From: an uncultured Methanomassiliicoccaceae archaeon
Lineage (GTDB): Archaea; Thermoplasmatota; Thermoplasmata; Methanomassiliicoccales; UBA472
NCBI GenBank assembly: GCA_964500045.1
Contig: CAZCNG010000003.1
Coordinates: 1 to 33,718 of the forward strand
DNA length: 33,718 nucleotides
Direction of reading: 5' to 3'
Part shown: positions 6,341 through 33,449 of the stretch, one piece after another
Layout: each line of letters begins with the position of its first letter
How positions within the stretch are numbered: the stretch's first letter is position 1
Notes under the pieces: generated by a model
Seen by the model: only the letters and a program-made list of their open reading frames with translations
Told to the model about the DNA's origin: nothing
Database searches by the model: none
Program-made: the position numbers and the translations under genes

Positions 6341-6394
6341 TGCGCTTTGCGTTCTCGGAGCCGAGTATGCAGCAATGACTGGGGCCGGAGATGA

Positions 6395-7719: not shown

Positions 7720-7823
7720 CAAGGGAACGCCTCGGTCCAGGATACTATCTGCCACGATATCAACGCTTTCTCGCACGAAGCCCGACGCGTCTCTTGTCGA
7801 CCCCTCATTTTCGACGGGGGTAC

Positions 7824-10381: not shown

Positions 10382-10545
10382 TCCTCTTCAACTGGACGGC
10401 GCGGGCGGTCATCAAGTACTGCCTCTCGATGCTTCAATGGACATGGATGTATGGGACCAAGCGCCCTCCTGCCTTGCCCCTGCTCCGCAAACCATTATCA
10501 TCCCGCAAGGCCACAGCCTATTGCCAACATTGTTGGGGGTTCCAT

Positions 10546-10629
10546 ATGTCTCGTCGTTCAGTGCGCGCTTTGTCTGCAGTATTGGTGGTGTTCCTTGGGC
10601 TATCTTTGCTCCCGTTGCCTGCTCAGGCT
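10546..10629 (+). other. Sec-type signal peptide of the giant membrane protein
   Basis: MSRRSVRALSAVLVVFLGLSLLPLPAQA has a basic n-region, a hydrophobic core and an A-Q-A cleavage motif. Confidence 0.7.
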
Positions 10630-14763: not shown

Positions 14764-14770
14764 GATTCCT

Positions 14771-17700
14771 ATGCAAGAGGTCAAGGTCATGTGGACCGCC
14801 CTGCCCCAGGGCGTGGTCGAGAAGGACGGCAAGAAGAAGGCACGGGTCTCAGCGTTCGTCAGCATCCGATTGCGCACCGACCAGGGCGACACCCTGGGCG
14901 TTTTCCCTGAGTTCCTCAATTGGCCGAAGCAGCTGGACGGGATGAAGTTCATCGTGGATTTCGGCGGTAAGAAGCGCGAGGCGCAGGTGGAGAAGCAATG
15001 GGACGCCGCCCTCTGGGAAGGCATGTTCCACAAGGACACCTACCTGGAGCCGTTCGTCTACGACGACCTGTCCAATAATATCATTCACTCGTATCCGGTT
15101 GGATTGGTCAGCCTATTCATCGCCGGCAACTACCTCAATCTGGCCGTCAACTCGGCGAACGAACTGCCCAAGTTCGAAGCGCTGCGGCAGGAGAACTCCT
15201 TCGGCAAGCTCACCTTCAAAAGGGGCGAACGCGAGGAGTTGCGCAAGCTGCTGGACCAGCATCAGGCCAGGGACAAAGCCCTCTCGGTGAACGTCCTGCC
15301 GGCGGGCAAGAAGATCGAGGCCGCCTTCATGCAGACCAGCACCTTCCATGAACCGAAGGTCGCCAAGCCAGTGCCGCTTCCGAAGTATCCGGAGGACAAG
15401 CTCATCTTCGAAAAGATGGTGGACTTCCACCAGATGCTCTCCTCCCTGGCCAACTACCCGGAGCTGATGAAGCGCCTGGGCCTGCTGGTGGAGATGTACT
15501 TTGATCCGGATGAAGTGCCTGAATCATATCCGCAGGCTCCGCTTTCCCTGGCCTTCGAATCGCCGCAGTTCCAGGCGCGCGACTACTGTCCGCGCACCGC
15601 CTACATCTATGACCAGCGACGCCTCCTGCCCTCGCCTAGATCGCAGGGAGATTATGATTGGGGCTTCCTGCGCATGGAGAAGCCGGCCGAGTATCCCGTG
15701 CTGCAGTTCGATGTGGACGGCGCCGCCATCAAGGCGCTCAACTTCGCCCAGGATATGAAGGCGCAGGACGACAAGAAGTCGCTGGATACCCCCAAGGAAG
15801 GCGGAGTGCCCTTCCTCCGCTCCGCCGGCTTCTCGGTGGCGCGCACCGACCGCGCGGTCAAGTTGCACAAAGCCTTCACCGTCTCGAAGGTTCATGAGGA
15901 CGAATTGAAGCAGCAGAAACCGACCCTGCTCTTCGCCGAGGACGTGGCCCGGGGCGTTCGCTATGACGTCCTGGACCAGAGCGTGGGTCGCTTCCAGTCC
16001 TTGTGCTGGAGGAGCGGCACCTATCGCTACATCGATGAGAAGGAGGGGGAGAAGCTCATCGCCGAGCAGGTAGTGGATGAGGCCTGGGTGCAGACCGGAG
16101 CCACTTCCACACCGGACCCGAACATACCGCAGGCGCAGAAGGACCTCTTCGTACACGAGTCTCTCTTCAACTGGAGGGGCTGGAGCCTCAGCGTCCCTCG
16201 TCCTGGCCGACCGATCGACAAGGACGACAACGCCTCGGATGTGGAACAGATACCCGCCACCCAGCTCAAGCTGAAGACCGAGTTCCTGCCGGTGAAGGGA
16301 ACCCTGCCCCGTTTGAGATATGGGCACCGCTATTCGTTCCGTGGACGCATGGCGGACCTGGGCGGCTATGGTCCTCAATTGGATGACAACGATGCGTCGC
16401 ATGCCACCATGGCGCTGAAATATCTGCGCTTCGAGCCCATACCGCCGCCGCCCCTGCTCCTGAAGGAGGAGCTGGACCTGGATGAACGGCCGGCCGAGGA
16501 CATCGGCCGTCTGGTGATCCGATCCTATAACGACGACGTCAAGAAAGACGACCATGATAGCAAGGAAACGGCGGAGCGTCATGTGGCGCCGCCACGCATC
16601 GGGCAATTGGAGGCGGAACAGGCCGGCATGTTCGACGAAGCGACGGGAATGAGGGTGGACGCGGGCATCTACAAGATGCTCTGCGAACGGGACGTCGCCC
16701 ACTTCCAAGAGGCCAAGTCCGGCGACCCGCTATGCAAGAGCGATGAGTGTCGCGTGCCCTATCTTCCCGACCCATTCGTTCTGGGGGCTGCCCTGCAGGG
16801 GCTGCCCACTGGCTCGGCCAATCCGGGGGGAAGCCCCTATCAGGTGCACTGGAAATTATCGTCGCAGGGCGAATGGAAGGACTTCGGCAAGCCGGAGCAC
16901 TGGCCGGAACTGCTGCCTTTCCGCATCCGTTTGGAGGAGGGCGACAAGGACCCGTCCTGGGACGACAGTGGCCGCGTTCTGACGGTCTACCTGCAGAAGG
17001 CCGAGCGCGTTCGCTTCAAATTGTCCAGCTATCTGTCAAAGGAAAGACTGGAGCAGATGGGCCTGTGGAACTGGGTGGAGATCTTCAAGGAGTTGGGAGG
17101 AAAGCTGGATGAGGACCAGTTCCAACACCTGCGTGACAATGCGCTGAAGGGTAAGAACTGGCTGCTGACTCCCTTCCGTTGGGTGGAGCTGGTGCATGCG
17201 GTGCAGCAGCCTCTCGGCAGGCCAGACATCGCAGCGCTCTTCCCCCGCCGCGACCGCGGCCATACCTACGCCGACCTCAATGGGGCGGTCACCGTGCATG
17301 GCCCCAGCTCTGGAAAACTGGAAATGATGGCCCAGTGGGAGGAAAGACATGATGATCCCAGTGATCTGAAGAACGATCCGGTCAAGGACCGTCGCGGCGG
17401 GTATGTGATGGCCTTCGATCATGATCTGGAACCGAAGGACCAGACCTACAGTTTCATGATGGATTATAGTCGCCGGCATCATTTCGGCGATACCATCTAC
17501 CGCCATGTGCGCTACCGGGCCGTGGCCACGACGCGCTTCAAAGAGTACCTCTCCAAGCTGGTGCGCGAAGACCCGAAGTCCGATTTCACCCGGGTCAGCC
17601 AGGACGTGGAGCTGGACATTCCCAGCTCGGCGCGTCCCGCAGTACCGCGCATAGTATATGCCCTGCCGATCTACAAATGGTCGCCCTCGGTGCACACCCC

Positions 17701-18610
17701 CGTGGGCGGCGTGAGCAAGAGGACCGGCAAGGCGCTGCGCATCTACCTGCAGCGGCCTTGGTTCTCCTCCGGCGACGGCGAGAAGCTGGGCGTGGTGCTC
17801 TATCCTGGTTCCCTGCCGGCGGACGGGGAGGCGCTGGACCGCATCAAGCCCTACGTGACCATGGTCGGGCAGGACCCCCTGTGGGGTACTCATGCCACCC
17901 CCTCGAACCTCACCCTGGTCGATTTCAAGAACCGGCTCCCGGAGAGCGCATCGGGATTGAAATTGTCCGAAATGGACGATGTCACCGTCGACGTGGCCGC
18001 GTTCGAACCAGGCTACGACCAGGAAAGGGGGTTGTGGTACGCCGACATAGAGATCGAAACGGGCGCTTCCTACACGCCCTTCATCCGCCTCGCGCTGGTC
18101 CGCTACCAGCCGCAATCCGTGCCGGGGGTGGAGATATCGTCCGTGATGTTGGCCGATTTTGCCCAGCCACAGCCTGACCGTACCATGAGCGTCGTGCACG
18201 CCCCGGGTCTGGTCACGGTGACCGTGTCCGGCGAATCCTACCACTCGCGGCGCTTCGCCGAAGGAACGGCCCCGGACCAGGGCCACAGCAAGTTGGAGCT
18301 GTCGGTCGAGAAGTTCGAACCGAGCATCGGCACCGACCTGGGCTGGGTACCTGACCCGGATGCGAAAGTCAGCGAGGTCCTTGGCATCGTACCGGGGGCC
18401 TTGATGAGCGGGACGGTCACGCTGCCTCTGCCGAAGGTGCCCAAGGAAGGCGAGAAGCCTGCGCCGCCGCCCCGGCGTCGTGTCGTGGTGCGGGAGTACG
18501 AGATCATCACCCGCGACCGCCTGAGCACCGGTCCGGAGTCGACCATCCAGACAAGCACCCCGTGGGTGGAGGGACGCCGCTTGGTGTACACGGACATGAT
18601 GGAGCTCTGA
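14771..18610 (+). CDS. giant soluble protein of unknown function (about 1279 aa), translationally coupled partner of the upstream gene
   Basis: ATG at 14771 (MQEVKVMWTALPQG). No signal peptide or TM helix is visible, and no catalytic motif recognised. The ORF is uninterrupted to the TGA at 18608-18610. Confidence 0.85.
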   Translation: MQEVKVMWTALPQGVVEKDGKKKARVSAFVSIRLRTDQGDTLGVFPEFLNWPKQLDGMKFIVDFGGKKREAQVEKQWDAALWEGMFHKDTYLEPFVYDDLSNNIIHSYPVGLVSLFIAGNYLNLAVNSANELPKFEALRQENSFGKLTFKRGEREELRKLLDQHQARDKALSVNVLPAGKKIEAAFMQTSTFHEPKVAKPVPLPKYPEDKLIFEKMVDFHQMLSSLANYPELMKRLGLLVEMYFDPDEVPESYPQAPLSLAFESPQFQARDYCPRTAYIYDQRRLLPSPRSQGDYDWGFLRMEKPAEYPVLQFDVDGAAIKALNFAQDMKAQDDKKSLDTPKEGGVPFLRSAGFSVARTDRAVKLHKAFTVSKVHEDELKQQKPTLLFAEDVARGVRYDVLDQSVGRFQSLCWRSGTYRYIDEKEGEKLIAEQVVDEAWVQTGATSTPDPNIPQAQKDLFVHESLFNWRGWSLSVPRPGRPIDKDDNASDVEQIPATQLKLKTEFLPVKGTLPRLRYGHRYSFRGRMADLGGYGPQLDDNDASHATMALKYLRFEPIPPPPLLLKEELDLDERPAEDIGRLVIRSYNDDVKKDDHDSKETAERHVAPPRIGQLEAEQAGMFDEATGMRVDAGIYKMLCERDVAHFQEAKSGDPLCKSDECRVPYLPDPFVLGAALQGLPTGSANPGGSPYQVHWKLSSQGEWKDFGKPEHWPELLPFRIRLEEGDKDPSWDDSGRVLTVYLQKAERVRFKLSSYLSKERLEQMGLWNWVEIFKELGGKLDEDQFQHLRDNALKGKNWLLTPFRWVELVHAVQQPLGRPDIAALFPRRDRGHTYADLNGAVTVHGPSSGKLEMMAQWEERHDDPSDLKNDPVKDRRGGYVMAFDHDLEPKDQTYSFMMDYSRRHHFGDTIYRHVRYRAVATTRFKEYLSKLVREDPKSDFTRVSQDVELDIPSSARPAVPRIVYALPIYKWSPSVHTPVGGVSKRTGKALRIYLQRPWFSSGDGEKLGVVLYPGSLPADGEALDRIKPYVTMVGQDPLWGTHATPSNLTLVDFKNRLPESASGLKLSEMDDVTVDVAAFEPGYDQERGLWYADIEIETGASYTPFIRLALVRYQPQSVPGVEISSVMLADFAQPQPDRTMSVVHAPGLVTVTVSGESYHSRRFAEGTAPDQGHSKLELSVEKFEPSIGTDLGWVPDPDAKVSEVLGIVPGALMSGTVTLPLPKVPKEGEKPAPPPRRRVVVREYEIITRDRLSTGPESTIQTSTPWVEGRRLVYTDMMEL

Positions 18611-18697: not shown

Positions 18698-18753
18698 GCG
18701 CTTCGGATGACACCCTTTAAGTCCAAACTAGGCGATTGGGCGGCGTATTCAGG

Positions 18754-20274
18754 ATGATGCGCGTAATCCTCATTGACGATGAATTGGACCTCGCCGAGGT
18801 CACCCGGGATTTCCTTGAGTTGAGCGGGCAGATGCATGTCTCCGTGGCAGGGTCTGCGCTCGAGGGCCTGGAGCAGCTCAAACGCGATGACTATGATGCG
18901 GTCGTCAGCGATTACCAGATGCCGCTGATGGATGGATTGCAGCTCCTGAAGAAGTTGCGCCAGGAGGGCAACAACATACCCTTCATCCTCTTCACGGGCA
19001 AGGGGCGCGAGGAGGTCGTCATCGAAGCCCTGAACTCCGGGGCGGACTTCTATCTACAGAAGGGAGGTCAGCCCGTCGCGCAGTTCGCCGAGCTGGCACA
19101 TAAGATCCGCCAGGCGGTCCATTCCCGCCGGTCCGAGTCCGCGCTGATCGAGAGCGAACAACGATTCAAGGACCTTTTCGAGAGCATGGGCAGTGGAGTT
19201 GCCATCTATTCCGTGCGCAACGATGGCAATCATGGCAGCGACTATATCGTCAAGGACTTCAATCGCAAGGCGCTGCAGATCGAAGGCAAGCGCAGGGAGG
19301 AAGTGGTGGGTAAGAGCCTCTTTGAGCTCCGCCCCCGCATCGACGAGTACGGCCTGATCCCCATGTTCCGTGAAGTATGGATAACGGGGAAGGCGGCCTT
19401 CTACCCGGCTAAGGTATACATCGACGATCATTACTTTAGCTGGTACCAGAACACGGTCTTCCGCCTTATCAGCGGCGAGATCGTCGCTATCTACGAGGAT
19501 GTTTCAGAACAGCAGCGCGCCGAGGAGGCATTGCTTGACAGCGAAGCAAGGTACCGTTCTCTGGTGGAGAACTCCTTTGAAGGGATCTGGATAATGGACG
19601 GGGACAGTATCACCACCTACGTCAACCAACGCATGGCGGATATGTTGCATCTGCGCCCGGAGGACATGGTCGGCCGTTCCGTCACCGAGTTCCTGCTCCC
19701 GGGACAGGACGAGGAGCACGAGGAGCGAATGCAGCAACGCATGGCCGGGGTCAAGGCCCGGTACGAGCACTGCTTCTACCTGGCGGACGGCTCCTCGGTG
19801 CACTGCATGGTATCCGCCGTGCCGATCATGGGGCCTGATGGTAGTTTCCAGGGCAGTGTCGGCGTCTTCATGGACATCTCTGAAATGAGGCAGACGGACG
19901 CCGCAATGCGTGAGCGCCAAATGAAGCTGGACAGCCTGTTCAAAGCCGCCCCGGTCGGCATGGGTTTCGTCAAGGACCGTACCTACCTCGAGGTCAACCG
20001 CCGCACCGAGGAGATGACCGGCTACAGCGCTGCGGAACTGGTCGGACAGAGCACGCGTATGCTCTACGAATCCGATGAGGAGTACCAGCGCGTGGGCCGG
20101 GAGAAATATGGGGAGCTGGACCGGGTCGGCATCGGCACGACGGCGACCAAATGGCGGAGGAAGGACGGTACGTTCCTTCCGATCCAACTGACATCGGCCG
20201 CCATAGTCCCAGGTGACCGCAGCCAGGGCGTGTGCTTCATCGCCATTGAGCTTGCGCCGCTCAAGCACAGATGA
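18754..20274 (+). CDS. response regulator: receiver domain plus three PAS domains, no recognisable output domain
   Basis: MMRVILIDDE...DAVVSDYQMPLMDG...ILFTGKG...GADFYLQKGG is a REC domain with acceptor Asp, Thr and Lys. Three PAS-like units follow, beginning SEQRFKDLFESMGSGVAIY, SEARYRSLVENSFEGIWIMD and MKLDSLFKAAPVGMGFV. Confidence 0.85.
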   Translation: MMRVILIDDELDLAEVTRDFLELSGQMHVSVAGSALEGLEQLKRDDYDAVVSDYQMPLMDGLQLLKKLRQEGNNIPFILFTGKGREEVVIEALNSGADFYLQKGGQPVAQFAELAHKIRQAVHSRRSESALIESEQRFKDLFESMGSGVAIYSVRNDGNHGSDYIVKDFNRKALQIEGKRREEVVGKSLFELRPRIDEYGLIPMFREVWITGKAAFYPAKVYIDDHYFSWYQNTVFRLISGEIVAIYEDVSEQQRAEEALLDSEARYRSLVENSFEGIWIMDGDSITTYVNQRMADMLHLRPEDMVGRSVTEFLLPGQDEEHEERMQQRMAGVKARYEHCFYLADGSSVHCMVSAVPIMGPDGSFQGSVGVFMDISEMRQTDAAMRERQMKLDSLFKAAPVGMGFVKDRTYLEVNRRTEEMTGYSAAELVGQSTRMLYESDEEYQRVGREKYGELDRVGIGTTATKWRRKDGTFLPIQLTSAAIVPGDRSQGVCFIAIELAPLKHR

Positions 20275-22859: not shown

Positions 22860-24149
22860 ATGGACTCAGTGGAGGAACTAGCGCGCCGGGCCAAGGACGC
22901 ATCCTACCGGCTGCAGGCCATGCCGGCCACGAAGAGGAATGAGGCGCTGGAGGCCATCGCCAAGGCGATAGCGGCTCAACGCAAGCATCTGCTCGATGCC
23001 AATCTTGAGGACGTGCGTCGTTCCGAGGCCGAAGGCCTTTCCAAGGTGCTGATCAAGCGTCTGCGCTTTGACGAGGAGAAGGTCGAAGAGTCAGTACGCA
23101 TGCTGCATTCCCTCATGGGTCAGGAAGATCCTCTCAACAAGGTCCTGGCCCGCAGCGAGCTCGACGAAGGCCTCATTCTGGAGAAGGTCACCTGCCCGAT
23201 CGGCGTCATGGGCGTCATCTTCGAAGCGCGCCCCGAAGCGCTGGTGCAGATATCCTCTCTCTGCCTGAAGTCTGGAAATGCCGTGCTGCTCAAGGGCGGT
23301 TCCGAAGCTAGATCTACGAATGAGGCTCTAGCCCGCTGCATCAGTGAGGCCATCATCCAGGTCGATGCGGCGTTCGAGGGCGCGGTCCAGCTCCTCTCCA
23401 CCCGGGAAGAGGTGCACGCGCTCCTGGCCCAGGACCGGTACGTCGATCTCATCATACCGCGCGGTTCGAACGAACTGGTGCGGTCGATCCAATCCTCCAC
23501 GCGCATACCAGTGCTCGGTCATGCGGCCGGCATCTGCCACACCTTCGTGGACAAGGGGGCCGATCTGGACATGGCCATCAAGGTCTGTTTCGACGCCAAG
23601 GTGCAGTATCCCGCCGTCTGCAACGCCATGGAAACGTTGCTAGTACACTCGGCCATCGCCAAGGAATTCCTGCCCCGCATGGCGAAGCATTACGCTGACG
23701 CCAAGGTGCAACTGCGCGGCGATGTCCGTACCCGGGAGATAGTGCCCATGCAGGAGGCCTGCGCGGCTGACTGGGATGCGGAATACAACGACCTCATACT
23801 CTCGATCATGGTCATAGACTCGCTCCCGGAAGCGGTGAGGTTCATCAATCTGCACGGGTCGCATCACACCGACGCGATCATCACCAAGGACACCGTGGCG
23901 GCGCAGTTCTTCATGGACAATGTGGACAGCAGCTCGGTGATGTGGAACTGTTCCACGCGCTTCGCTGACGGCTATCGATACGGTCTGGGTGCTGAGGTGG
24001 GCATCTCCACCAACAAGACGCATGCGCGCGGGCCGGTCGGATTGGAAGGCTTGATCATCTACAAATGGAAGCTCGTCGGCCACGGCCACGTGGTCGCCGA
24101 TTACGCAGGCAAGAATGCCAAGCGATACACGCACAGGAAGATGCTATGA
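22860..24149 (+). CDS. proA: gamma-glutamyl phosphate reductase
   Basis: 429 aa with a typical ProA N-terminus (ARRAKDASYRLQAMPATKRNEALEAIAKAI). Aldehyde-dehydrogenase-fold blocks include VMGVIFEARPEALVQI, NAVLLKGGSEA and the catalytic CNAMETLLVH. Confidence 0.92.
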   Translation: MDSVEELARRAKDASYRLQAMPATKRNEALEAIAKAIAAQRKHLLDANLEDVRRSEAEGLSKVLIKRLRFDEEKVEESVRMLHSLMGQEDPLNKVLARSELDEGLILEKVTCPIGVMGVIFEARPEALVQISSLCLKSGNAVLLKGGSEARSTNEALARCISEAIIQVDAAFEGAVQLLSTREEVHALLAQDRYVDLIIPRGSNELVRSIQSSTRIPVLGHAAGICHTFVDKGADLDMAIKVCFDAKVQYPAVCNAMETLLVHSAIAKEFLPRMAKHYADAKVQLRGDVRTREIVPMQEACAADWDAEYNDLILSIMVIDSLPEAVRFINLHGSHHTDAIITKDTVAAQFFMDNVDSSSVMWNCSTRFADGYRYGLGAEVGISTNKTHARGPVGLEGLIIYKWKLVGHGHVVADYAGKNAKRYTHRKML

Positions 24150-25255
24150 GAGACATTTCCCCCAAGCGCGTCGTGGTCAAGATCGGCACCAACACCATCT
24201 GCCGCGAGGACGGCACGGTCGATACGGACTACTTACAAGGGGTGGCCCGGCAGGTAACCTCCCTGCGCGAGGCGGGCCTGGAGATCATCGTCGTCTCTTC
24301 CGGTGCCATCGGCTCTGGGATGTACGAGCTCGGCCTCAAGGAGAGGCCGCGCGAAGTCTCCGTCAAGCAGGCGTGCGCCGCCGTGGGTCAGGCCATCCTG
24401 ATGATGGAATGGAGGGCTGCCTTCTCCAAGGAAGGTTTGATCGTTGGGCAGGTACTGCTCACCTATGGTGCGTTCTCGGACCGCATCCGCTATCTCAATT
24501 TGCGCAAGGCGATGGAAGAGATGTTCCGGCTCGGAGTCGTTCCGATCGTCAACGAGAATGACGTGATCTCGACCGATGAGATCGAGGACATCTTTGGCGA
24601 CAATGACAAGTTGTCGGCGCTGGTGGCCAGCAAGGCTGACGCAGACCTGCTCATCCTTCTCACCGACGTGGACGGCCTCTACGACCGCAATCCGAGCGTC
24701 GACAAGGACGCGGTCCTCATTCCCACCGTGGACGAGATCACCAAGGATATCGAGAGGATCGCTGGCGGCAACAAGAACGACCGCTCCGTGGGTGGCATGC
24801 GCACCAAGATCACCGCCGCCAGGATCTCCATGGAGTCGGGCTGCAATATGATCATCGCCAACGGCCGCACCGAGGACGTCATCCTCAAGGCGGCGCGTGG
24901 AGCGGAGATAGGCACGCTCTTCACTGCCCGCTACCTCTACGACAACCGCGAGCGCTGGATACTGTTCGCCGCACCGAAGGGGAAGATAGTCATTGACGCC
25001 GGCGCCGAGGAAGCGCTGAAGAAGGGCCGCAGCCTCCTACCCTGTGGCGTCAAAGACGTGGAAGGGAAGTTCAAAGAGGGGGACATAGTCCGCATCAACA
25101 GCTTCGCCAAAGGGGTGGTCAACTTCTCGTCGGCCGCATTGGCGGAGTTGCTGGAAGAGTGCCGTGCCGAGAAGGTGAAGCATCACGGCAAGGTCGGCAA
25201 CGATAAGGTGGTGGTCGGCCACGAGAACATCGTGCTCCTGCAGGCGGACAATTGA
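24146..25255 (+). CDS. proB: glutamate 5-kinase with C-terminal PUA domain
   Basis: The ATG at 24146 overlaps the proA stop (ATGA). RVVVKIGTNTI...IIVVSSGAIGSG...VPIVNENDVISTDEI..FGDNDKLSALVA is followed by a PUA-like GKIVIDAGAEEALKKGRSLLPCGV. Confidence 0.92.
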   Translation: MRDISPKRVVVKIGTNTICREDGTVDTDYLQGVARQVTSLREAGLEIIVVSSGAIGSGMYELGLKERPREVSVKQACAAVGQAILMMEWRAAFSKEGLIVGQVLLTYGAFSDRIRYLNLRKAMEEMFRLGVVPIVNENDVISTDEIEDIFGDNDKLSALVASKADADLLILLTDVDGLYDRNPSVDKDAVLIPTVDEITKDIERIAGGNKNDRSVGGMRTKITAARISMESGCNMIIANGRTEDVILKAARGAEIGTLFTARYLYDNRERWILFAAPKGKIVIDAGAEEALKKGRSLLPCGVKDVEGKFKEGDIVRINSFAKGVVNFSSAALAELLEECRAEKVKHHGKVGNDKVVVGHENIVLLQADN

Positions 25256-25321
25256 TACCGGCTCCGCGGGGGCACGAAAGTGTTTTCCCCGCCGGCGTAT
25301 TCCCCCGCCACGGTCATTAGC

Positions 25322-26143
25322 ATGAAGGTCAGCATCATCGGGTATGGCAACATCGGCAGCACTTTGGCCGAGGCATTGCTGGAGCAGAAGGCGCTTCGTC
25401 CGGAGCACCTGATCGTGGCCAATCGCACCCCGGAGAAGACCGCCTCCCTCCTTTCCAAGTACCCAGGGGTTTCCTGCGCGGACAATGCGCGGGCAGCGGC
25501 CTGGGGCGACATCGTCTTCCTGTGCGTGCGTACGCCGCAGGTGCTTCCGGTGCTGCGCGAGATCACGCCCTGCATGAGCGAAGAACAGCACCTGGTCATC
25601 ACCAACGGAGGCGTCCGTCTGGAGAACGTGGCCTCCGTTTTCAGCGGCGCCGTGAGCAAGCTGGTGCCCTCCATCGCCATGCGCTCCGGGCGCGGGGTAT
25701 CTCTTCTATGCCACGAGCAGAAGGTCGGCAGTGACGCACGCTCCCGCCTGGAAGGGTTGTTGGCCCACCTGGGCATGGTGTGCCCGGTGCAGCAGGACCA
25801 GTTCGAGGTGGCGGCGGACCTGACGAGCTGCGCTCCGGCCCTCTGGGCGGCGTTGGCGCAGCATTTCGCGGATGCGGGTTGCAGGCACTCGGACCTGAGT
25901 CCGGCGGATGCCTATCTCATGGTCACGGAGACGCTCCTGGCGAGCGCCTCCTTGTTGCGGGACGGCGGGGTGCTTCCCGATCAAATGAGAGAGCTGGTGG
26001 CAACTCCGGGAGGCATCACCGAGCAGGGACTGATGGTCCTCGACCGGAAGATGCCCGACGTCTTCGACGAACTGCTGGTAGCCACCACAGCGAAGCACGA
26101 GGAGACGAAATCGAAGGTGCGTCAGCAGTTCGAATCTCCATAG
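25322..26143 (+). CDS. proC: pyrroline-5-carboxylate reductase
   Basis: ATG at 25322. MKVSIIGYGNIGSTLAEAL is a Rossmann motif, and the C-terminal block LVATPGGITEQGLMVL is the P5CR signature. The stop is TAG. Confidence 0.85.
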   Translation: MKVSIIGYGNIGSTLAEALLEQKALRPEHLIVANRTPEKTASLLSKYPGVSCADNARAAAWGDIVFLCVRTPQVLPVLREITPCMSEEQHLVITNGGVRLENVASVFSGAVSKLVPSIAMRSGRGVSLLCHEQKVGSDARSRLEGLLAHLGMVCPVQQDQFEVAADLTSCAPALWAALAQHFADAGCRHSDLSPADAYLMVTETLLASASLLRDGGVLPDQMRELVATPGGITEQGLMVLDRKMPDVFDELLVATTAKHEETKSKVRQQFESP

Positions 26144-26386: not shown

Positions 26387-27013
26387 ATGACACAGAGCTT
26401 GCACGTCCTTATCGGCCTGCTGTTGGAGGGCGACCAAATGAAGGCCGCCGCCGAGGCACATCGTCTGCTCGATGCTGGAGTGGATAGGGAAAGGATCGTC
26501 ACGAGCGGCATCGAGGAGGCCATGAAGCAGCTGGACTCCAAGTGCACACTTGAGGAATTCAACCTGCTGGAGATAATGCTGGCAGGACGGGCGGCCACCG
26601 AGGTGCTGCGGGTCCTATTCCCCCGGGGCGATCACACGGCCCACAAGGGCGTGGTGGTATTGGGCACTCCCAAGGGGGACGTGCACGACCTGGGCAAGAA
26701 CATCGTCAAGAGCATCCTCGTCTCCTCTGGCTACCGCGTGATCGACTGTGGCAAAGATGTGCCGCCGGAGCGGCTAGTGGAGGCGGCCGAGCGAGAGAAG
26801 GCCATGGCCATTGGCGTTAGCGGCCTGGTGACCACGACCTTGTTGCCTGTGCGGCAGCTGCGGCCGATGCTAGCGGGGAGAGGCGTGCAATGTCTCCTGC
26901 TGGCCGGGGGAGCCGCCCTGGCACTTTCCAGCGAAGAAAGACTCGATGTTGACCACGTGGCTCGGGACGCTTTTGAAGGTGTCCACTTCCTGAATCAGAG
27001 GCTGGGCCAATGA
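26387..27013 (+). CDS. corrinoid (B12-binding) methyl-carrier protein, MtaC/MtbC/MtsB-like
   Basis: An N-terminal helical cap is followed by a Rossmann B12-binding domain. It has D-x-H-x-x-G (GDVHDLGKN), S-x-L (VSGLVTTTL) and GG (LLLAGGAA). Confidence 0.88.
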   Translation: MTQSLHVLIGLLLEGDQMKAAAEAHRLLDAGVDRERIVTSGIEEAMKQLDSKCTLEEFNLLEIMLAGRAATEVLRVLFPRGDHTAHKGVVVLGTPKGDVHDLGKNIVKSILVSSGYRVIDCGKDVPPERLVEAAEREKAMAIGVSGLVTTTLLPVRQLRPMLAGRGVQCLLLAGGAALALSSEERLDVDHVARDAFEGVHFLNQRLGQ

Positions 27014-28023
27014 ACTCCCTGCAGCGTATTCTATCCACGGCGGCGTTGGAAAGGCCGGACCGCCCTGCGGTGGCACCGCAGTTGTTCGGATTTGCTGCGC
27101 AACAGCTCGGCGTCGATCTTGGTCGCTATGTGCGGGAAGGCAAGGTAATGGCGCGCTGCCAGTTGAAAGCACGAGAGCGCTTCGGAACGGACATGCTGTT
27201 CGCCATCAGCGATGTCGGCGTGGAAACGGAGGCCACTGGCTCGGAGTTGATCTATCATGATCATGACTATCCCACCGTGGGGGAGTATGCAATCCATTCG
27301 GCCGCGGGAGTGGAGGGACTGGGGGTGCCGACGCCGGAACGGGATGGGCGCATGCCGGAGATCCTAACCGCCATCAAGACGATGCGAGCGGCCGTGAAGG
27401 ACACCTGTCCTGTGGTGGGGTGTGTGCTCGGCCCGATGACATTGGCCGCGCAGTTGATGGGCCCGGAGAATGTCCTCTTCCTATCCCATGACGAACCGGA
27501 GGCCTTCGAGGCGCTTCTGCACCAAGCCACCGCCATCGTCCAGGCGTACGGCGCGGCGCAGGTCGAAGCAGGTGCCCACGTGGTGTTGGTATTCGATCCG
27601 GCCGCCTCGCCCACGGTGTTCCCCAAGGCCACCTTCATCCGCTATGAGCAGAATCTGCTGGCCACCATCTTCAGTTCTCTGGGTCGGGCGGGCGCCCCCT
27701 TGAAATGGCTGCACATAGCCGGTCCGATCGCCCCCATCATGGAACACATGCGAGAGATCGGCGTGCAGATACTGTCCATCGACCAAAGCATCCCATCGTA
27801 TGAGGTGCAGGAGCACATGCCCAAGGTGTGCGTGGTGGGCAACATAAACTGCCTGAGCCTCCTGCAGGAAGAACCGTCTCTGATCAAGGCAGACTGCGAT
27901 CGTTTGTTGGAGGAGTACAGTCAGCGGGGAGGTCTCATTCTGTCCTCGGCCTGCGAGGTGCCTCCAATGACGCCGTCGGCCAATATCATGGCGATGGTCC
28001 GCGCGGCCAAGGATTGGAAGTGA
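27010..28023 (+). CDS. uroporphyrinogen-decarboxylase-family (URO-D/MtaA-like) methyltransferase
   Basis: The ATG overlaps the upstream stop (ATGA). Typical family N-terminus: RILSTAALERPDRPAVAPQLFGFAAQQLGVDLGRYV...QLKARERFGTDML. 337 aa, a typical size. The H-x-C zinc motif is absent (see findings). Confidence 0.85.
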   Translation: MNSLQRILSTAALERPDRPAVAPQLFGFAAQQLGVDLGRYVREGKVMARCQLKARERFGTDMLFAISDVGVETEATGSELIYHDHDYPTVGEYAIHSAAGVEGLGVPTPERDGRMPEILTAIKTMRAAVKDTCPVVGCVLGPMTLAAQLMGPENVLFLSHDEPEAFEALLHQATAIVQAYGAAQVEAGAHVVLVFDPAASPTVFPKATFIRYEQNLLATIFSSLGRAGAPLKWLHIAGPIAPIMEHMREIGVQILSIDQSIPSYEVQEHMPKVCVVGNINCLSLLQEEPSLIKADCDRLLEEYSQRGGLILSSACEVPPMTPSANIMAMVRAAKDWK

Positions 28024-28027
28024 ATTG

Positions 28028-30832
28028 ATGGTGAATGTCCGGGCCCGCCAGGGCGAGATCCAGGTACAGGTGTCGATCGAGGCTGGCTGCTTCATTCTCG
28101 AAGCATTACGGGGCACACCGCTGGAGGTGCGTTCCGGCTGCAACGGCAACGGCTCGTGCGGCATTTGCCAGGTGAGAGTTGTTCAAGGTCACATGTCGCC
28201 GCCGAGCCTGCCGGAGATGCTGCAGATCCCCAAGGCCGAATTGGACAAGGGACGCAGACTTGCCTGCCAGGCGCGCATACTGGGCGACGTGGAGCTGGAG
28301 CTCATTAGCGGACGGGAGACCGTGGGATGGAAGCTGCTACCGCGGGAAGAGGACCGGTTGGACCTGACCCGCAAGACCGCGTTGGGGCGCAGCTACACCT
28401 CCGCCCTCTGCATCGACATCGGCACCTCCAGGCTGCGCCTGAGCCTTACGGACCTCGGCTCGCACGCTCGTCTGGCCGGTGCCAGTGGGCCTAACCCTCT
28501 GCCGGGGAGCGACGTGATCTCACGCCTCGACGCGGCCTCGCTAGGGGAAGGCGAAGAGGAATCATACCAGCTGCGACAGGCGATCGCAGAAGGCCTATCC
28601 TTCTTGCACGTCGTGGCTGGTGTGGACCTGAATGCTGTAAGAAAGATCATTGTGGTGGGCAACAGTGCCATGCAGTCCCTGTTGCGGGGAACGGGCCACG
28701 CCCTCATCCTCGACCCCGCCTCCTGGTCAAAGCGGGCGCCGCGAGATACGATCCTTCTCCCCGATTTCGGAAGGGACATCGGACTCGGAGATGTCGAAGC
28801 GGAAGTGATCCCCCCGCTGGGCGGCTTCATCGGTTCTGACCTCCTTGCAGGGATGCTGGCCTGCGATCTTGATGGCGGAGAAACGTCGCTCCTGGTGGAT
28901 TTCGGCGCCAATACCGAGATCGCCCTATGGACCGGCGAGAAGATGATGGCCGTATCCGTCGCCGGCGGCCCGGCCTTTGAAGGGTGGGGCATTGGTTGCG
29001 GCATGGCGGCCTATCCTGGCGCGGTCTTCCGCGTGCAGGCGCTGGGCGACGGAAAGGTCGACCTGGGCATCATCGGGGGCGGTCCTCCCTCGGGGCTGTG
29101 CGGCTCGGGGCTGGTGGATACCTTGGCCCTGTTCGTGGGGCGCGGCATGGTCGATGAGGTCGGTCGTATCCAAGGGGAGACGGCCATCATCGATCCGAAC
29201 TGGGGGTTGCATCTCACCAAGGCGGATATCGACGTGCTACAAAGGGCCAAGGCCGCCGTGGCCGCATCGATCATGTACCTGCTGCAGAAGGCGGGGATCG
29301 GGGCGGATAGGATCGTCAAGGTGTACGTGGCCGGGACCTTGGGTCGGTATCTCGACATTCCCAATGCGGTCTACATAGGTCTGCTGCCCCCCTTGCCGGT
29401 CAGCCGCTTCGAGCAGATCGAGAACGCGGCGCTATTGGGCGCCGAACTGTGTGCCCTCGACGACAAGAAGAGGGCGCGCCTGGAGGCCTGGGGCGCAAGC
29501 ACCGAGATGCACAACCTGGCCGCCGCCCCGGGATTCGAGGACCTCTTCATCGATTCATTACATCTGCGTCCGTGGCCGGGGCGGACGATCTACTCTTCGT
29601 TCCGGGACCTCGGGCGTCCCGAAGAGAATTTCGTGCGGGCGGCGCAGTACATTTCCGATATGCGGCTGGAGGGTGACAACCAGGAGAAGCTGGGAATGAT
29701 GATCGCGCGTCTCTTCGACGCGGACCTGATCGCCTTCGTCGAACACCGCGATGACATTCTGGTCCTGCGCGAGATCGACAACCGTTCTCTTGCCTGCCGT
29801 TCCTGTCCGCATGAGGAGCTCATCCTCCGGGAGGCCAGAGTGGTAATGGAGAGCGGATTCGCGTCCACCATAGGGCCGACGCCGGACCGGGTCTCCTCCA
29901 TCGCGCTGCTGCCGATGCAGGTGGAGGAGCGTACCGTGGTCATGGTCATCGGCCACGATATCCCGGAGCAGATGCCCCGGCAGCGGTTGGACGTCTATCT
30001 GGCACTCTCCAAGAGCGCGGGGGGCATCCTCACCCGCCTGGAACAGGAGCGGGAACTGATCGGTCACCGCACCCGGCTATCCAAGCTCGTTGAGGAACGC
30101 ACCATGCAGGTCGAGGAGGTCAATGCCAAGTTGCGCCAGGAGGTGGAGATGCGCGCCCGTGACGAAGAGGCGATCCGCCTCGCGAACAATAAGCTGAACC
30201 TCCTCTCCAGCATGACAAGGCACGACATCATCAATCAGGTCACGGCGGTGCTTGGATACGTGCACCTCATGGAAACGAAAGGGTTACCACCGGAGAAGAT
30301 GATGCGCTACCTGGGCAAGATAGAGAGCATCACCGCTACGATCCAGAGGCTCATCGAATTCACGCGCGACTACCAGGACCTGGGCGTGCACGGGCCGACC
30401 TGGCAGCAGATCGATGAGGACTTCTGGAGGGCGGCGGCGTCCTTCCGCGATAGCGGCCTCACCTTCACCTCCGGCACCGAGGGGTTGGAGATCTTCTCGG
30501 ACCAGATGCTCAACAAGGTCTTCCATAACCTGATCGACAACACCATTCGCCACGGTGGGGGAGCGCGGCAGGCGAGCCTTTCCTATGTGATGGACGGAGA
30601 AGAGCTCCTGCTCCACTACCGCGATGACGGGGTAGGTATCTCCCCGGACCAGAAGGCATTGATCTTCGAAAGGGGCTTCGGCAAGAACACGGGCCTGGGA
30701 CTGTTCCTGGTGCGCGAGATCCTCTCCATCACTGGCATCCGCATCGTTGAGGTCGGAACGCCCGGGAACGGCGCCGATTTTGCCATGCATGTGCCAAAAG
30801 GCAGCTTCCGGCTGCGCTCGGGGAAGGGATGA
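28028..30832 (+). CDS. fusion protein: [2Fe-2S] ferredoxin + RACo/RamA-type ASKHA corrinoid reductive-activase domain (COG3894/DUF4445-like) + GAF-like domain + histidine kinase
   Basis: N-terminus: SGCNGNGSCGICQV...LACQA, a plant-type 2Fe-2S Cys pattern. Activase blocks: LCIDIGTSRLR, GSDVISRL, VVGNSAMQSLL, VDFGANTEIALW, VAGGPAFEGWGIGCGMAAYPGAVF and GLCGSGLVD. After about aa 520 comes a sensor-like region and coiled coil. The kinase has H-box LLSSMTRHDIINQV (His codon 30221-30223), N-box FHNLIDNTIRHGG, G1 DDGVGI and G2 GLGLFLVREI. Confidence 0.85.
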   Translation: MVNVRARQGEIQVQVSIEAGCFILEALRGTPLEVRSGCNGNGSCGICQVRVVQGHMSPPSLPEMLQIPKAELDKGRRLACQARILGDVELELISGRETVGWKLLPREEDRLDLTRKTALGRSYTSALCIDIGTSRLRLSLTDLGSHARLAGASGPNPLPGSDVISRLDAASLGEGEEESYQLRQAIAEGLSFLHVVAGVDLNAVRKIIVVGNSAMQSLLRGTGHALILDPASWSKRAPRDTILLPDFGRDIGLGDVEAEVIPPLGGFIGSDLLAGMLACDLDGGETSLLVDFGANTEIALWTGEKMMAVSVAGGPAFEGWGIGCGMAAYPGAVFRVQALGDGKVDLGIIGGGPPSGLCGSGLVDTLALFVGRGMVDEVGRIQGETAIIDPNWGLHLTKADIDVLQRAKAAVAASIMYLLQKAGIGADRIVKVYVAGTLGRYLDIPNAVYIGLLPPLPVSRFEQIENAALLGAELCALDDKKRARLEAWGASTEMHNLAAAPGFEDLFIDSLHLRPWPGRTIYSSFRDLGRPEENFVRAAQYISDMRLEGDNQEKLGMMIARLFDADLIAFVEHRDDILVLREIDNRSLACRSCPHEELILREARVVMESGFASTIGPTPDRVSSIALLPMQVEERTVVMVIGHDIPEQMPRQRLDVYLALSKSAGGILTRLEQERELIGHRTRLSKLVEERTMQVEEVNAKLRQEVEMRARDEEAIRLANNKLNLLSSMTRHDIINQVTAVLGYVHLMETKGLPPEKMMRYLGKIESITATIQRLIEFTRDYQDLGVHGPTWQQIDEDFWRAAASFRDSGLTFTSGTEGLEIFSDQMLNKVFHNLIDNTIRHGGGARQASLSYVMDGEELLLHYRDDGVGISPDQKALIFERGFGKNTGLGLFLVREILSITGIRIVEVGTPGNGADFAMHVPKGSFRLRSGKG

Positions 30833-31881
30833 TGAGATGTGCGGTCGTCGTGCACGGACCGGAGGCGGTGGACACCGGTCTGGCCCTCCGCGTGCTCGAG
30901 TTGTTGGAATCTGAATATGATGTCCGTGCCGTGATGAGCGGCTACACCGGCGTGGCGGCGGTCGTGGATGCCGGTCTGCAGGGTCGCATCGACATCCGCG
31001 AGCATCACGTGCCCTCGGTGACGCTAAGGCGCCTGGCGCCGGAGGTGGAACTGCTCGTCCTGGTGAACAGCGCCAAGGATGAGGGCAGCGCTCTGCGCTT
31101 TGGAAGTATCGTGAGCAGTCGCTGCGCGGATATCCTGGTGCCGCTGGTGCAGGTCGATGCCCTGATGGTGCTGCCCTGGAACGATGCCCTGCGGCAGGCG
31201 CTCCAGCTCGCGGACGCCCTGGGGATACCGCTCATGGTGCCGACCCGCACTCCTGACGAAGAGGAGGAGGGATGGCGCCGTCTCGGCGGCGTCCATCCGG
31301 GCGAGAATGTCTGGATCAACGGCGTGGTGGTTGGCAAGGCCACCTCCGAGGACGTCCGTATCCACTGCGAAGAGGGTCGGCTGCAGGCGCACGGCATCGC
31401 TTTGAAGGAAACGGGCGTACGCAGGCTAGGTGCGTTCGTTGCGGCCACAGCGCACATCCGCAGCGGGGTGACCCGACGCACGGCCGCGATCCCGCGCCAG
31501 ATTCCTTCAGTCGGCGGAGAGGAAGGCCGTCTCATCGATCATTCCGCCGAGGAGGCGATCACCACCTGCCGCGATGCCGCCTATGTGGTGACGATCGGGG
31601 ATGACACCGGCCGGGCGGCCGCGGCGCTGCTCTTCCGCTTTGGCGTGAGGGTGCTAGCCATCACCGACGGGGACGAGGACGGCATCTGCCCGGAGGTCCT
31701 CTCCACCACGGGTTCGATGGAACTGCGCATGATGCCCGGTACTGATGACATCGTCGGGGCTGAGGTGAGGCAGAAGTTGTTCTCCCAGGGGGCCACCTCC
31801 CTTCGCTTCGGCGAGATGGTCGATGCGATAGTTTGCATTGCAGGCGACCGCCTCCTCTGGAAAAGTGAACGAAAGGATTAA
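30829..31881 (+). CDS. conserved archaeal hypothetical protein (DUF2117-like by recollection; acidic ITDGDEDG motif)
   Basis: The ATG overlaps the kinase stop (ATGA). Two-lobed 350-aa protein. The C-terminal lobe has AAYVVTIGDDTGRAAAALLFRFGVRVLAITDGDEDGI, an acidic metal-binding-looking motif. The family assignment is from memory only. Confidence 0.6.
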   Translation: MMRCAVVVHGPEAVDTGLALRVLELLESEYDVRAVMSGYTGVAAVVDAGLQGRIDIREHHVPSVTLRRLAPEVELLVLVNSAKDEGSALRFGSIVSSRCADILVPLVQVDALMVLPWNDALRQALQLADALGIPLMVPTRTPDEEEEGWRRLGGVHPGENVWINGVVVGKATSEDVRIHCEEGRLQAHGIALKETGVRRLGAFVAATAHIRSGVTRRTAAIPRQIPSVGGEEGRLIDHSAEEAITTCRDAAYVVTIGDDTGRAAAALLFRFGVRVLAITDGDEDGICPEVLSTTGSMELRMMPGTDDIVGAEVRQKLFSQGATSLRFGEMVDAIVCIAGDRLLWKSERKD

Positions 31882-32975: not shown

Positions 32976-33449
32976 ATGAAGGCATACATCGCCGTCGATT
33001 CATACTACGGCTGCACCAGGGCGGTCGCCAACGCGGTCGCCGAGGAACTGAGGGTCCTGGGCCTAGAGACGACCGTGGTATTCCTCAAGAGCAAGCCCTG
33101 GCCGGTGGCGGAGGGAGATATCCTCTTCATAGGATCGCCTACGCGCTGGGGCAATATGACCCGCCGCGCCAAGAAGTTCGTCACCAAGCTGGATGCGGAA
33201 GCGTGGAAGGGCAAACCGGTCTTCACCTTCGACACGGTGGCGCAGGCTCCCACCGATCCGATGAGGCAGGCAAAGGCGCAGAGGTGGACCGCGCATGGCG
33301 CGGCGCACAAGCTCAAGGAGATGCTGGAGGCCAAAGGCATCGGGGTCCGTCCTGAGATGTTGCGAGCTGATGTCATCGGATTGAAGGGACCTCTGGCCCC
33401 AGACGCATTGGACAAGGTCAAGGTATTCACACGGGACCTCAAGTTTTGA
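32976..33449 (+). CDS. flavodoxin-family protein (paralogue type of 6395-6850)
   Basis: MKAYIAVDSYYGCTRAVA contains S-x-x-G-x-T, followed by DILFIGSPTRWGN and KPVFTFDT. The layout matches the other flavodoxin in the window. Confidence 0.8.
   Translation: MKAYIAVDSYYGCTRAVANAVAEELRVLGLETTVVFLKSKPWPVAEGDILFIGSPTRWGNMTRRAKKFVTKLDAEAWKGKPVFTFDTVAQAPTDPMRQAKAQRWTAHGAAHKLKEMLEAKGIGVRPEMLRADVIGLKGPLAPDALDKVKVFTRDLKF

Follow-up and report, generated by a model that had tools for sequence, protein, structure and literature searches.

The stretch of DNA analyzed here (the window, over its full length) comprises 33,718 nucleotides (nt) of contig CAZCNG010000003.1, from an uncultured Methanomassiliicoccaceae archaeon. 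At positions 28028 to 30832 it contains a single open reading frame (ORF), in which a corrinoid activase of the RACo type is followed by a GAF-like domain and a predicted histidine kinase. The genes of a corrinoid protein and a URO-D/MtaA-like protein lie directly upstream, so that the RACo half is encoded with its cognate corrinoid protein, the B12-binding gene standing two genes upstream. The corrinoid gene overlaps the URO-D gene by 4 nt, and the URO-D-to-RACo spacing is 1-4 nt. These genes and the domains of the fusion protein are as follows (aa, amino acids).

26387..27013, + strand: corrinoid (B12-binding) protein, 208 aa; Pfam B12-binding, E 1e-19; DxHxxG cobalt-ligand motif present as DVHDLG
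27010..28023, + strand: URO-D/MtaA-like protein, 337 aa; Pfam URO-D, E 2e-65; aligns to MtaA (4ay7), E 6e-26
28028..30832, + strand: RACo-GAF-histidine kinase fusion ORF; 934 codons and stop from ATG; alternative TTG start at 28025
28061..28279, + strand: [2Fe-2S] ferredoxin domain, residues 12-84; Pfam Fer2, E 1e-9
28403..28873, + strand: RACo middle domain, residues 126-282; Pfam Raco_middle, E 1e-17; phosphate-1 motif DIGTS at 130-134
28880..29566, + strand: RACo C-terminal ASKHA ATPase domain, residues 285-513; Pfam RACo_C_ter, E 1e-56
29573..29617, + strand: fusion linker, about residues 516-530; low predicted local distance difference test score (pLDDT) at model residues 1-18
29618..29977, + strand: predicted GAF-fold middle (MID) domain, about residues 531-650; AlphaFold2 (AF2) model and Foldseek
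29978..30187, + strand: predicted long signalling helix/coiled coil, about residues 651-720, joining the GAF domain to DHp; helix over model residues 147-246
30188..30397, + strand: DHp domain, about residues 721-790; H-box RHDIINQ at 731-737, with His732 (codon 30221-30223)
30398..30829, + strand: CA (HATPase_c) domain, residues 791-934; Pfam HATPase_c at 828-924, E 4e-13

The original prediction, made from the letters of this DNA, had described one uninterrupted 934-codon ORF. The ORF listing agrees, and a Methanomassiliicoccales metagenome-assembled genome (MAG) deposited at NCBI encodes the identical 934 aa. The public names of these proteins are 'ASKHA domain-containing' or 'DUF4445 family/histidine kinase'; the identical MAG protein is named 'ASKHA domain-containing protein' only. 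An assembly or frameshift artefact might join two separate genes in this way, as the RACo and GAF-output genes are separate in 79 of the 80 related loci described below and are often offset by 1-4 nt, where one indel could fuse them. However, the same uninterrupted fused ORF was found in four independent assemblies: the NCBI MAG (100% identity), and Logan SRR26784071 and two JGI metagenomes (88, 84, and 60% identity). The 88, 84, and 60% relatives are full-length and co-linear, and their linker is conserved. The ratio of nonsynonymous to synonymous substitution rates (dN/dS) was obtained by codon-by-codon comparison of the window ORF with the 88% relative. It is 0.17 over the whole ORF, 0.08 across the junction (residues 490-560), 0.16 in the middle domain, and 0.11 in the CA domain; by individual segment the values range from 0.08 to 0.27, and DHp is lower still at 0.013. 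Purifying selection acts on both halves of the ORF and on every segment. Because four independent assemblies carry the fused frame and every segment is under purifying selection, the fusion is not an artefact; independent fused homologues are also known from bacteria. A stop or frameshift at the junction, which the original prediction had proposed to look for in reads, was not seen in any of these four assemblies, and the probability of an artefact is negligible. We regard the ORF as a genuine gene in which the last two members of a conserved four-part cassette are fused.

The N-terminal half has the same domain order as RACo, the reductive activator of CoFeSP in Carboxydothermus hydrogenoformans (PDB 3zyy, 4c1n), namely a [2Fe-2S] ferredoxin domain, a middle domain, and an ASKHA ATPase, and both activases are encoded alongside a corrinoid partner. 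Residues 12-510 align to the RACo structure 3zyy with E 6e-45. The ferredoxin cysteine pattern and the COG3894 activase motifs read from the sequence earlier were all recovered in place: DIGTS (130-134), GSDVISRL (160-167), GNSAMQ (211-216), DFGANTEIAL (291-300), AGGPAFEG (312-319), GCGMAAYPGA (323-332), and LCGSGL (357-362). A failure of this half to match COG3894/DUF4445 profiles would have spoken against the assignment; Raco_middle and RACo_C_ter match strongly. In an alignment of 22 clade members, the cluster ligand cysteines C38, C44, C47, and C80 are invariant, as are the ASKHA phosphate-binding motifs D130-G-T, D291-F-G-x-N-x-E, and G314-P-A-F-E. Since the cluster cysteines and the phosphate-binding motifs are invariant, the reductive ATPase chemistry is presumably retained. 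The scores against the curated subfamily models are 231 bits for AcsV (NF040756, cutoff 800) and 117 bits for RamA (TIGR04270, cutoff 500). Because these scores are far below the cutoffs, the half can be placed in the DUF4445 superfamily but in neither characterised subfamily (AcsV, RamA); the earlier RamA/RACo assignment is right at the superfamily level.

The linker of the fusion protein coincides with the RACo stop and the GAF-gene start of the unfused relatives. Stand-alone RACo proteins end in ...LYLRPM, and stand-alone GAF genes start about 18 residues before an AFIKAAQY motif. Beyond the linker, Pfam gave no match over residues 516 to about 700, even at E 10. A profile of the MID domain searched against PDB sequences found chance coiled-coil matches only and no relative. 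Two large word-indexed searches, made with the MID sequence or its profile, yielded 2 and 4 proteins and failed to recover even the full-length homologues, and hence provided no census. The AF2 model of residues 505-934 (pLDDT 76) contains an alpha/beta domain, a helix of about 100 residues, a two-helix DHp, and a CA domain. This model resembles the LOV-kinase YF1, bacteriophytochrome kinases, and HK853-type kinases (structures 4gcz, 8upk, 9eut), and its predicted DHp/CA fold matches HK853, CpxA, and WalK. The domain modelled alone (residues 523-686) reached pLDDT 89 and a predicted template modelling (TM) score of 0.85. In a Foldseek search against the PDB, the top 22 chains were GAF or GAF-like (E from 3e-5, TM about 0.5-0.65), including Nlh1/Nlh2, a cyanobacteriochrome kinase, the N-domain of an HD-GYP protein, PtsP, NifA, CodY, and fRMsr; rank 23 was the TraR autoinducer-binding domain. 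Pfam GAF_2 and GAF_3 gave sub-threshold matches in two homologues (E 2.5e-3 and 5.7e-4). The models thus indicate that the middle region is a divergent GAF domain. Across 56 homologous MID domains, Q540 and Y541 are invariant, and G610, F611, P629, and L658 are conserved above 90%; no conserved Cys or His was found among these domains. In the AF2 model, Q540 and Y541 sit on the N-terminal helix of the GAF domain.

In the kinase core, the Pfam HisKA match at 724-783 is weak (17-19 bits, below the cutoff of 26.9), and His732 aligns to the canonical SHE/SHD histidine of the HisKA-positive relatives P0122, P0123, and P0016. The N-box (833-843), G1 (866-871), F (880-885), and G2 (889-894) boxes were all located. 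The C-terminal half is predicted to be a class I histidine kinase with a GAF input, and both halves of the protein look catalytically intact. The original prediction had proposed a sensor-like region of about 150 aa from about nt 29580, GAF-like in character, then a coiled coil and H-, N-, G1-, and G2-boxes. Pfam, the motif positions, and the confidently folded model, whose top PDB matches are all GAF, bear out this architecture, and add the F box to it.

Homologous loci were collected by scanning one genome per GTDB species with the clade alignment. This gave 423 loci, and the best 80 (35-41% identity) were annotated with profiles built for this analysis. The RACo clade lies in a signalling operon in 79 of these 80 closest loci, and one locus is cut by a contig end. 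Two cassette types were distinguished. Type A (59/80) has the order corrinoid protein, URO-D, RACo, and then a gene that starts with the GAF domain of the window and has a C-terminal output of the kinase, GGDEF, HD-GYP, or SpoIIE kind. Type B (20/80) has the order (REC), RACo, corrinoid/URO-D (often fused), DUF1638, (ETR1_N-)PAS kinase, REC; two of the 20 (L028, L051) end just past corrinoid/URO-D, with the same order and with kinase and receiver genes upstream. The ETR1_N (ethylene-receptor) domain is N-terminal on the kinase in the three Pfam-annotated type-B loci (L005, L007, L008); in L005, an SBP-like (Phosphonate-bd) sensor is also present. In type A, the nearest possible start of the GAF gene lies -8 to +4 nt from the RACo stop in 43 of 55 scorable pairs, by a nearest-start heuristic that is biased toward small gaps. 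In 74/80 loci, RACo has a corrinoid or URO-D gene at a distance of no more than 6 kb; the other six are cut by a contig end or have the match at the contig edge. REC domains, either fused or in an adjacent gene, are frequent in related cassettes. The stand-alone RACo proteins of highest identity (about 40%; L007-L009) also lie amid signalling genes. When all other ORFs up to 7 kb from RACo were clustered across the 80 loci, no further family appeared in more than 4 loci, and the largest came from four near-identical Sulfuricella loci. No substrate methyltransferase, methyl-acceptor enzyme, or transporter was recurrent within this distance. Among the distant homologues used as controls, one (L094, 34% identity) has a type-A cassette again, one (L092) is non-signalling, and two contigs were too short to inform.

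The closest RACo relatives are thus almost always coupled to kinase, GGDEF, HD-GYP, or SpoIIE outputs, by fusion or through an abutting or overlapping gene. The original prediction had known activases as stand-alone enzymes, which they are not exclusively: the clade normally has a separate GAF-output gene after RACo, and the window protein fuses both. A fused RACo-GAF-output gene occurs in only one of the 80 loci (L052). Fused lineages were examined in four further cases, and in all of them the corrinoid protein and URO-D are directly beside the RACo-kinase: the 60% archaeal relative (L001), a RACo-HisKA-HATPase-REC-Hpt hybrid (L002-L004), a RACo-PAS-HisKA_3 kinase (L006), and a protein of reverse order, SBP-PAS-HisKA-HATPase-RACo (L005), with a fused B12-URO-D protein and DUF1638 encoded after it. 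Further fusions came from an exhaustive phmmer search, in which the full-length protein was compared with 1.84 billion representative proteins; they include the RACo-GAF-HisKA kinases P0122 and P0123, the RACo-GAF-PAS-GGDEF protein P0126, and the RACo-GAF-PAS-GGDEF-EAL-CZB protein P0127. A search for the same architecture in other genomes had been suggested as a check; fused homologues occur in both Archaea and Bacteria. By nearest-neighbour analysis, RACo was fused to a GAF-output protein on at least five independent occasions, each with unfused nearest neighbours, and a kinase to RACo on one. RACo is also fused to its partners: P0132 (859 aa) joins a B12-binding domain to RACo, and P0205 and P0206 (about 873 aa) join URO-D to RACo. 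Since RACo is fused both to the corrinoid protein and to URO-D, a physical association of the three cassette proteins is supported.

The outputs found after the same GAF domain include HisKA, HisKA_2/HWE, HisKA_3, and hybrid kinases, GGDEF, GGDEF-EAL, HD-GYP (Sulfuricella, Dechloromonas agitata), and SpoIIE. Such a range of outputs behind a single domain is typical of an input module. Among the hosts are Methanoregula, Gallionellaceae, Sulfuricella, Nitrospirota, Geobacter, Anaeromyxobacter, Desulfobulbaceae, Acetobacterium, Chloroploca/Oscillochloris, Thauera, Zoogloea, and an anammox bacterium. Culturable hosts are Dechloromonas agitata DSM 13637 (L045, type A with an HD-GYP output), Acetobacterium tundrae DSM 9173 (L054, type A with a GGDEF output), and Geobacter sp. 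OR-1 (L089, type B).

The two partner proteins in the window have their counterparts in the type-A cassettes. The corrinoid protein has a median identity of 51% to the bacterial type-A partners, and URO-D of 43%; the identities to type-B partners are lower, 32% and 25%, respectively. The DxHxxG motif is kept in 71 of 73 scorable corrinoid proteins, and the two without it come from contig-truncated loci. A cap motif, KC[ST]xExFxLLE, is present in 48 of 52 type-A corrinoid proteins and absent from type B. In the window protein it reads KCTLEEFNLLEIMLAGRA (about residues 50-70). The Cys of this motif, if positioned over the corrin, could matter for sensing. The window corrinoid protein scores below every cutoff of the NCBIfam corrinoid families, and the URO-D protein scores 163 bits against MtaA/CmuA (TIGR01463, cutoff 235) and 129 against MtaA (NF040654, cutoff 400). 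The zinc ligands of MtaA, which we take to be a triad His-x-Cys ... Cys, are incomplete in the window protein, which has LHIAG in place of LHICG of MtaA (4ay7) and retains the distal Cys. This H-x-A pattern is general in type A, with no Cys at the H-x-C position in any of 55 URO-D partners and the distal Cys retained in 54 of them; in type B, both zinc-ligand positions are lost. A second, unlinked corrinoid/URO-D pair on L001 (19237-21000, about 7 kb downstream) has the canonical H-x-C intact. The cassette URO-D-like proteins may be non-catalytic or may catalyze a different chemistry. A catabolic methanogenic methyltransferase system was rejected on the sub-cutoff NCBIfam scores, the non-methylotroph orthologues, the incomplete zinc triad, and the lack of a further conserved gene family. 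Because its orthologues occur in non-methylotrophs, the H-x-C zinc ligand is missing, and no substrate methyltransferase recurs, the window corrinoid protein looks like a dedicated sensor component.

These data suggest that the cassette is a sensor built on a dedicated corrinoid protein, whose cobalt state the activase would pass on to the kinase. This is the best reading of the cassette, and we consider it moderately probable. It is favoured because state-selective partner binding, which is known from RACo, is the property that a sensor needs. The original prediction had proposed that the fusion reports the state of the corrinoid protein, or of the electron supply, directly into signalling, as a damage sensor for the methyltransferase system. 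The first part is the one best supported by comparative genomics. The second probably does not hold, as the partners have orthologues in non-methylotrophs such as Gallionellaceae, Sulfuricella, and Nitrospirota and are unlikely to be catabolic.

A different view of the same genes is that they form a metabolic (catabolic or biosynthetic) methyltransferase operon with an attached regulator, in which the GAF pocket senses the substrate and controls the operon, and the fusion is incidental. Kinases are often encoded beside their target genes, and GAF domains commonly bind small ligands. However, the GAF domain of the cassette has no conserved Cys or His of the pocket type, and two of its invariant residues, Q540 and Y541, lie on the N-terminal helix. 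The kinases MsmS and RdmS adjoin corrinoid methyltransferase genes in Methanosarcina (PMC6944256), and RamA-like proteins with DUF1638 serve the reactivation of methionine synthase (PMC5764234). In the cassette, by contrast, there is a single methyltransferase-like gene without the MtaA zinc triad, and no recurrent MT1/MT2 pair, transporter, or methyl-acceptor enzyme. The core without a signalling gene in the distant homologue L092 would fit a metabolic operon; the RACo-GAF-output fusions, at least five of them independent, and the unfused genes that nearly always abut or overlap, speak against one. Moreover, the outputs reach beyond transcription-coupled two-component systems to GGDEF, HD-GYP, SpoIIE, and hybrid kinases, and many hosts have no known corrinoid methylotrophy. 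A metabolic operon of this kind is therefore considered unlikely.

It might also be that the [2Fe-2S] and ASKHA half reads the redox state of the ferredoxin pool, or ATP, as an Fe-S redox sensor, with the corrinoid protein outside the signal. The invariance of the [2Fe-2S] cysteines, the flavodoxin gene conserved downstream in the archaeal loci, and the loss of the cobalt-ligating Ser398 of RACo are all compatible with such a sensor, although an ATP-dependent activase scaffold would be needless for it. The corrinoid protein and URO-D accompany RACo wherever the contig is long enough, each is sometimes fused to RACo, and the corrinoid proteins retain the cobalt-ligand motif and the clade-specific cap motif. 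These features argue for a part of the corrinoid protein in the signal, and a pure Fe-S sensor appears quite improbable.

Several known systems share parts with the cassette. RACo binds its corrinoid partner in the Co(II) form, in a complex that is near-stoichiometric (PMC4934906, and Hennig 2012 and 2014 cited there). Ser398 ligates the cobalt, and Co(I) is released after ATP-triggered electron transfer (same sources); the selectivity for the Co(II) form described there is the property that a sensor would exploit. RACo is a stand-alone enzyme in an acetyl-CoA pathway operon, unlike the window protein, which lacks about 85 residues of the RACo linker and has Ala at the Ser398 position and the fused GAF-kinase. 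The partner of RACo is CoFeSP, whereas that of the window protein is a small MtaC-like corrinoid protein. The RamA and O-demethylase activating enzymes also belong to COG3894/DUF4445, and they activate corrinoid proteins of the MtaC type by reducing Co(II) to Co(I) at the expense of ATP. However, RamA has 4Fe-4S clusters and serves catabolic methyltransferases, and no substrate methyltransferase of the MtaB, MttB, or MtmB type lies alongside the cassette.

MsmS and RdmS of Methanosarcina acetivorans are cytoplasmic GAF/PAS kinases beside corrinoid/methyltransferase genes, and are implicated in redox sensing (PMC6944256). They have no H-box and are not true histidine autokinases (PMC11784639). 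They sense via heme or thiols of their own GAF domains and are not fused to an activase; the window protein has the canonical His732. A mechanism of the MsmS/RdmS kind, based on heme or thiols, is unlikely for it, as neither Cys nor His is conserved in its GAF domain. A RamA-like DUF4445 protein and DUF1638 are needed for reactivation of the split methionine synthase in Phaeobacter and Desulfovibrio (PMC5764234), and the type-B cassettes likewise pair RACo with DUF1638. That system is biosynthetic, with a methionine auxotrophy phenotype. In the cassettes, by contrast, a URO-D-like protein takes the place of the MetH modules, and kinases, receivers, and GGDEF genes flank them; the type-A cassette of the window has no DUF1638 at all.

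In the B12 photoreceptors (CarH/LitR, AerR, and B12-binding-domain kinases), a cobalamin domain perceives the signal within the regulator or kinase, and no activase or methyltransferase is needed. In the cassette, the cobamide is on a separate protein and is serviced by an ATP-driven reductase, which points to the redox or alkylation state as the variable, not simply light. A self-regenerating B12 photoreceptor would nevertheless give all three cassette enzymes a role: from methyl-Co(III) on the corrinoid protein as the dark state, light would cleave the Co-C bond to give Co(II), which RACo would recognise and re-reduce; the URO-D-like protein would then restore the methyl group, and the cycle would be reported by the GAF-output protein. 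Alkyl-cobalamins are photolabile, photoreceptors based on B12 are known, and the phototrophs Chloroploca and Oscillochloris carry type-A cassettes whose output is GGDEF. However, the hosts are mostly dark-living anaerobes of sediment, groundwater, and digesters (methanogens, Gallionellaceae, Desulfobulbaceae, anammox bacteria), and no light-related gene is recurrent. The URO-D protein also lacks the canonical catalytic zinc site, with both ligand positions missing in type B. A light sensor is therefore regarded as very improbable. In co-sensing kinases (DcuS/DctA, BceS/BceAB, trigger enzymes), the signal comes from the working state of a partner and not from a free ligand. The cassette differs from these in that its accessory machinery is a three-protein corrinoid redox system.

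MsmS/RdmS, the RamA-like protein with DUF1638, and the B12 photoreceptors are the nearest published analogues, and none of them couples an activase to a signalling output. No published description of an activase coupled to a signalling output was found in the full-text literature searched, and the architecture is not covered by the photoglobin paper (PMC8717448). Both halves belong to known families; the window protein combines them as a sensor kinase with an input for which the literature searched gave no description, and it represents an activase clade recruited to signalling.

Three other genes of the window might be functionally connected to the cassette.

18736..20274, + strand: REC-PAS protein, 512 aa (ORF also from 18721); Pfam Response_reg and PAS
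30829..31881, + strand: DUF2117 protein, 350 aa; Pfam DUF2117, E 5e-80; start overlaps the kinase stop (ATGA)
32976..33449, + strand: flavodoxin-like protein, 157 aa; Pfam Flavodoxin_5/_3

A six-frame scan of the window identified REC-PAS at 18736 as the sole receiver, with no REC domain within 8 kb of the kinase, in agreement with the earlier statement that no receiver is adjacent and that this is the only one in the window. The REC-PAS gene is syntenic in L001, as is the whole region, and it is a speculative, non-adjacent candidate for the phospho-acceptor. The DUF2117 gene, of a family labelled 'conserved in archaea', has the same position in L001 and L010, and is absent from all 80 other cassette loci. 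It is a lineage-local member of the operon and might be a lineage-specific partner of the kinase. No sequence relative of the DUF2117 protein was found in the PDB; its C-terminal part has a TIGDDT...ITDGDEDG pattern, by eye reminiscent of acidic Toprim-like motifs. The flavodoxin gene is kept downstream in both archaeal loci with sufficient flank (including L001), and is absent from the other cassette loci. It is a possible low-potential electron donor to the [2Fe-2S] domain. DUF2117, flavodoxin, and UbiA were rejected as universal members of the cassette, since none of the 80 other loci carries any of them.

The remainder of the window was also inspected. A proline biosynthesis cluster (proA-proB-proC, 22860-26143) lies directly upstream of the cassette and is syntenic in L001. 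An intergenic region of 243 nt separates it from the corrinoid gene. No Rfam family or tRNA matched anywhere in the window, and a cobalamin riboswitch or other RNA upstream of the cassette was rejected on this result. In L001, the cassette corrinoid gene is directly preceded by two inserted genes (6310-8297), one for an AsnC-type regulator and one for a hybrid-cluster protein (Prismane/Hcp). Hcp is linked to nitric oxide and hydroxylamine stress. Two very long ORFs on the + strand, 10378-14763 (1461 aa) and 14708-18610 (1300 aa), closely precede the REC-PAS gene and have no Pfam match at E 1e-3. The ORF 9383-10381 (332 aa) has a borderline match to Neur_chan_memb, the transmembrane region of pentameric ligand-gated ion channels (28.0 bits, cutoff 28.1); this family is uncommon in archaea.

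For the proposed sensor we infer the following scheme, in which the sensed signal, the part played by the cobalt state, the electron donor, the receiver, and the direction in which information flows are all inferred. The corrinoid protein encoded at 26387 would bind a cobamide in the His-on form, as its DxHxxG motif suggests. By homology, the RACo half would take an electron on the [2Fe-2S] cluster and use ATP bound by the ASKHA domain to reduce Co(II) to Co(I). It would engage its partner selectively according to the cobalt state, as is established for RACo. The architecture suggests that partner occupancy or the nucleotide state would then be passed through the GAF domain and the helix of about 70 residues to DHp/CA, where His732 would be autophosphorylated. 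The phosphate would go to a non-adjacent receiver, speculatively the REC-PAS protein at 18736. The corrinoid protein would be held reduced or alkylated by RACo and the URO-D-like protein, and the quantity sensed would be whatever shifts its cobalt state. Oxidants could do so, as could a loss of ATP or of low-potential reductant, or a methyl donor or acceptor on which the URO-D-like protein acts. In a more specific form, which we put forward tentatively as slightly short of an even balance, the cobalt oxidation or alkylation state would itself be sensed, kept far from equilibrium by RACo and the zinc-less MtaA-like partner and relayed by the GAF domain; held equally tentatively as part of this form, the outputs would be histidine kinases, cyclic di-GMP enzymes, and PP2C phosphatases, in hundreds of anaerobic or microaerophilic species of Bacteria and Archaea.

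Several points weigh against a corrinoid-based sensor. The cassette is known from sequences and predicted models alone, and the direction of information flow is read from the domain order alone. The type-B fusions P0006 and P0024 carry RACo C-terminal to the kinase, which is the usual place of an output. The GAF domain could bind a small ligand of its own and merely co-regulate a metabolic operon. Ala312 (codon 28961-28963), which is invariant in the clade, aligns to the Co(II)-ligating Ser398 of C. hydrogenoformans RACo, so that partner recognition may differ; a Ser (S310) lies two residues upstream of Ala312 in the window protein. The sensor reading does not account for the part of the URO-D-like protein in the cassette. 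L092 (33% identity) has RACo, the corrinoid protein, URO-D, and DUF1638 beside an MMPL transporter and without a signalling gene, and therefore the core is not intrinsically a sensor. Inspection in the census covers the best 80 of the 423 loci. Lastly, no receiver gene lies next to the kinase, although most archaeal kinases are orphans in any case (PMC11784639).

In summary, RACo/RamA activases are commonly seen as housekeeping enzymes that repair corrinoid methyltransferases, but comparative and structural analyses suggest that a whole clade of them is coupled to signalling outputs, together with a corrinoid protein of its own and an MtaA-like partner that is degenerate. The hosts of this clade range over methanogens, iron oxidisers, denitrifiers, sulfate reducers, acetogens, and anoxygenic phototrophs. 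Should the cobalt state prove to be the signal, bacterial and archaeal sensing would gain a new physical principle, with an energy-driven, super-reduced metal cofactor as the probe. A sensor built on Co(I) could respond to agents by which super-reduced cobalt is specifically attacked, among them O2 and other oxidants, N2O, and methyl halides or other methyl donors; we know of no dedicated sensors for several of these agents. It would also give a function to many genes annotated only as 'ASKHA domain-containing' or 'DUF4445'. The window protein would be a rare archaeal kinase with a guessable and testable input, since its parts could be expressed and the cobalt states read spectroscopically. 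The question of how anaerobes sense oxidants, or Co(I)-inactivating gases such as N2O, would then have a candidate answer in this system.

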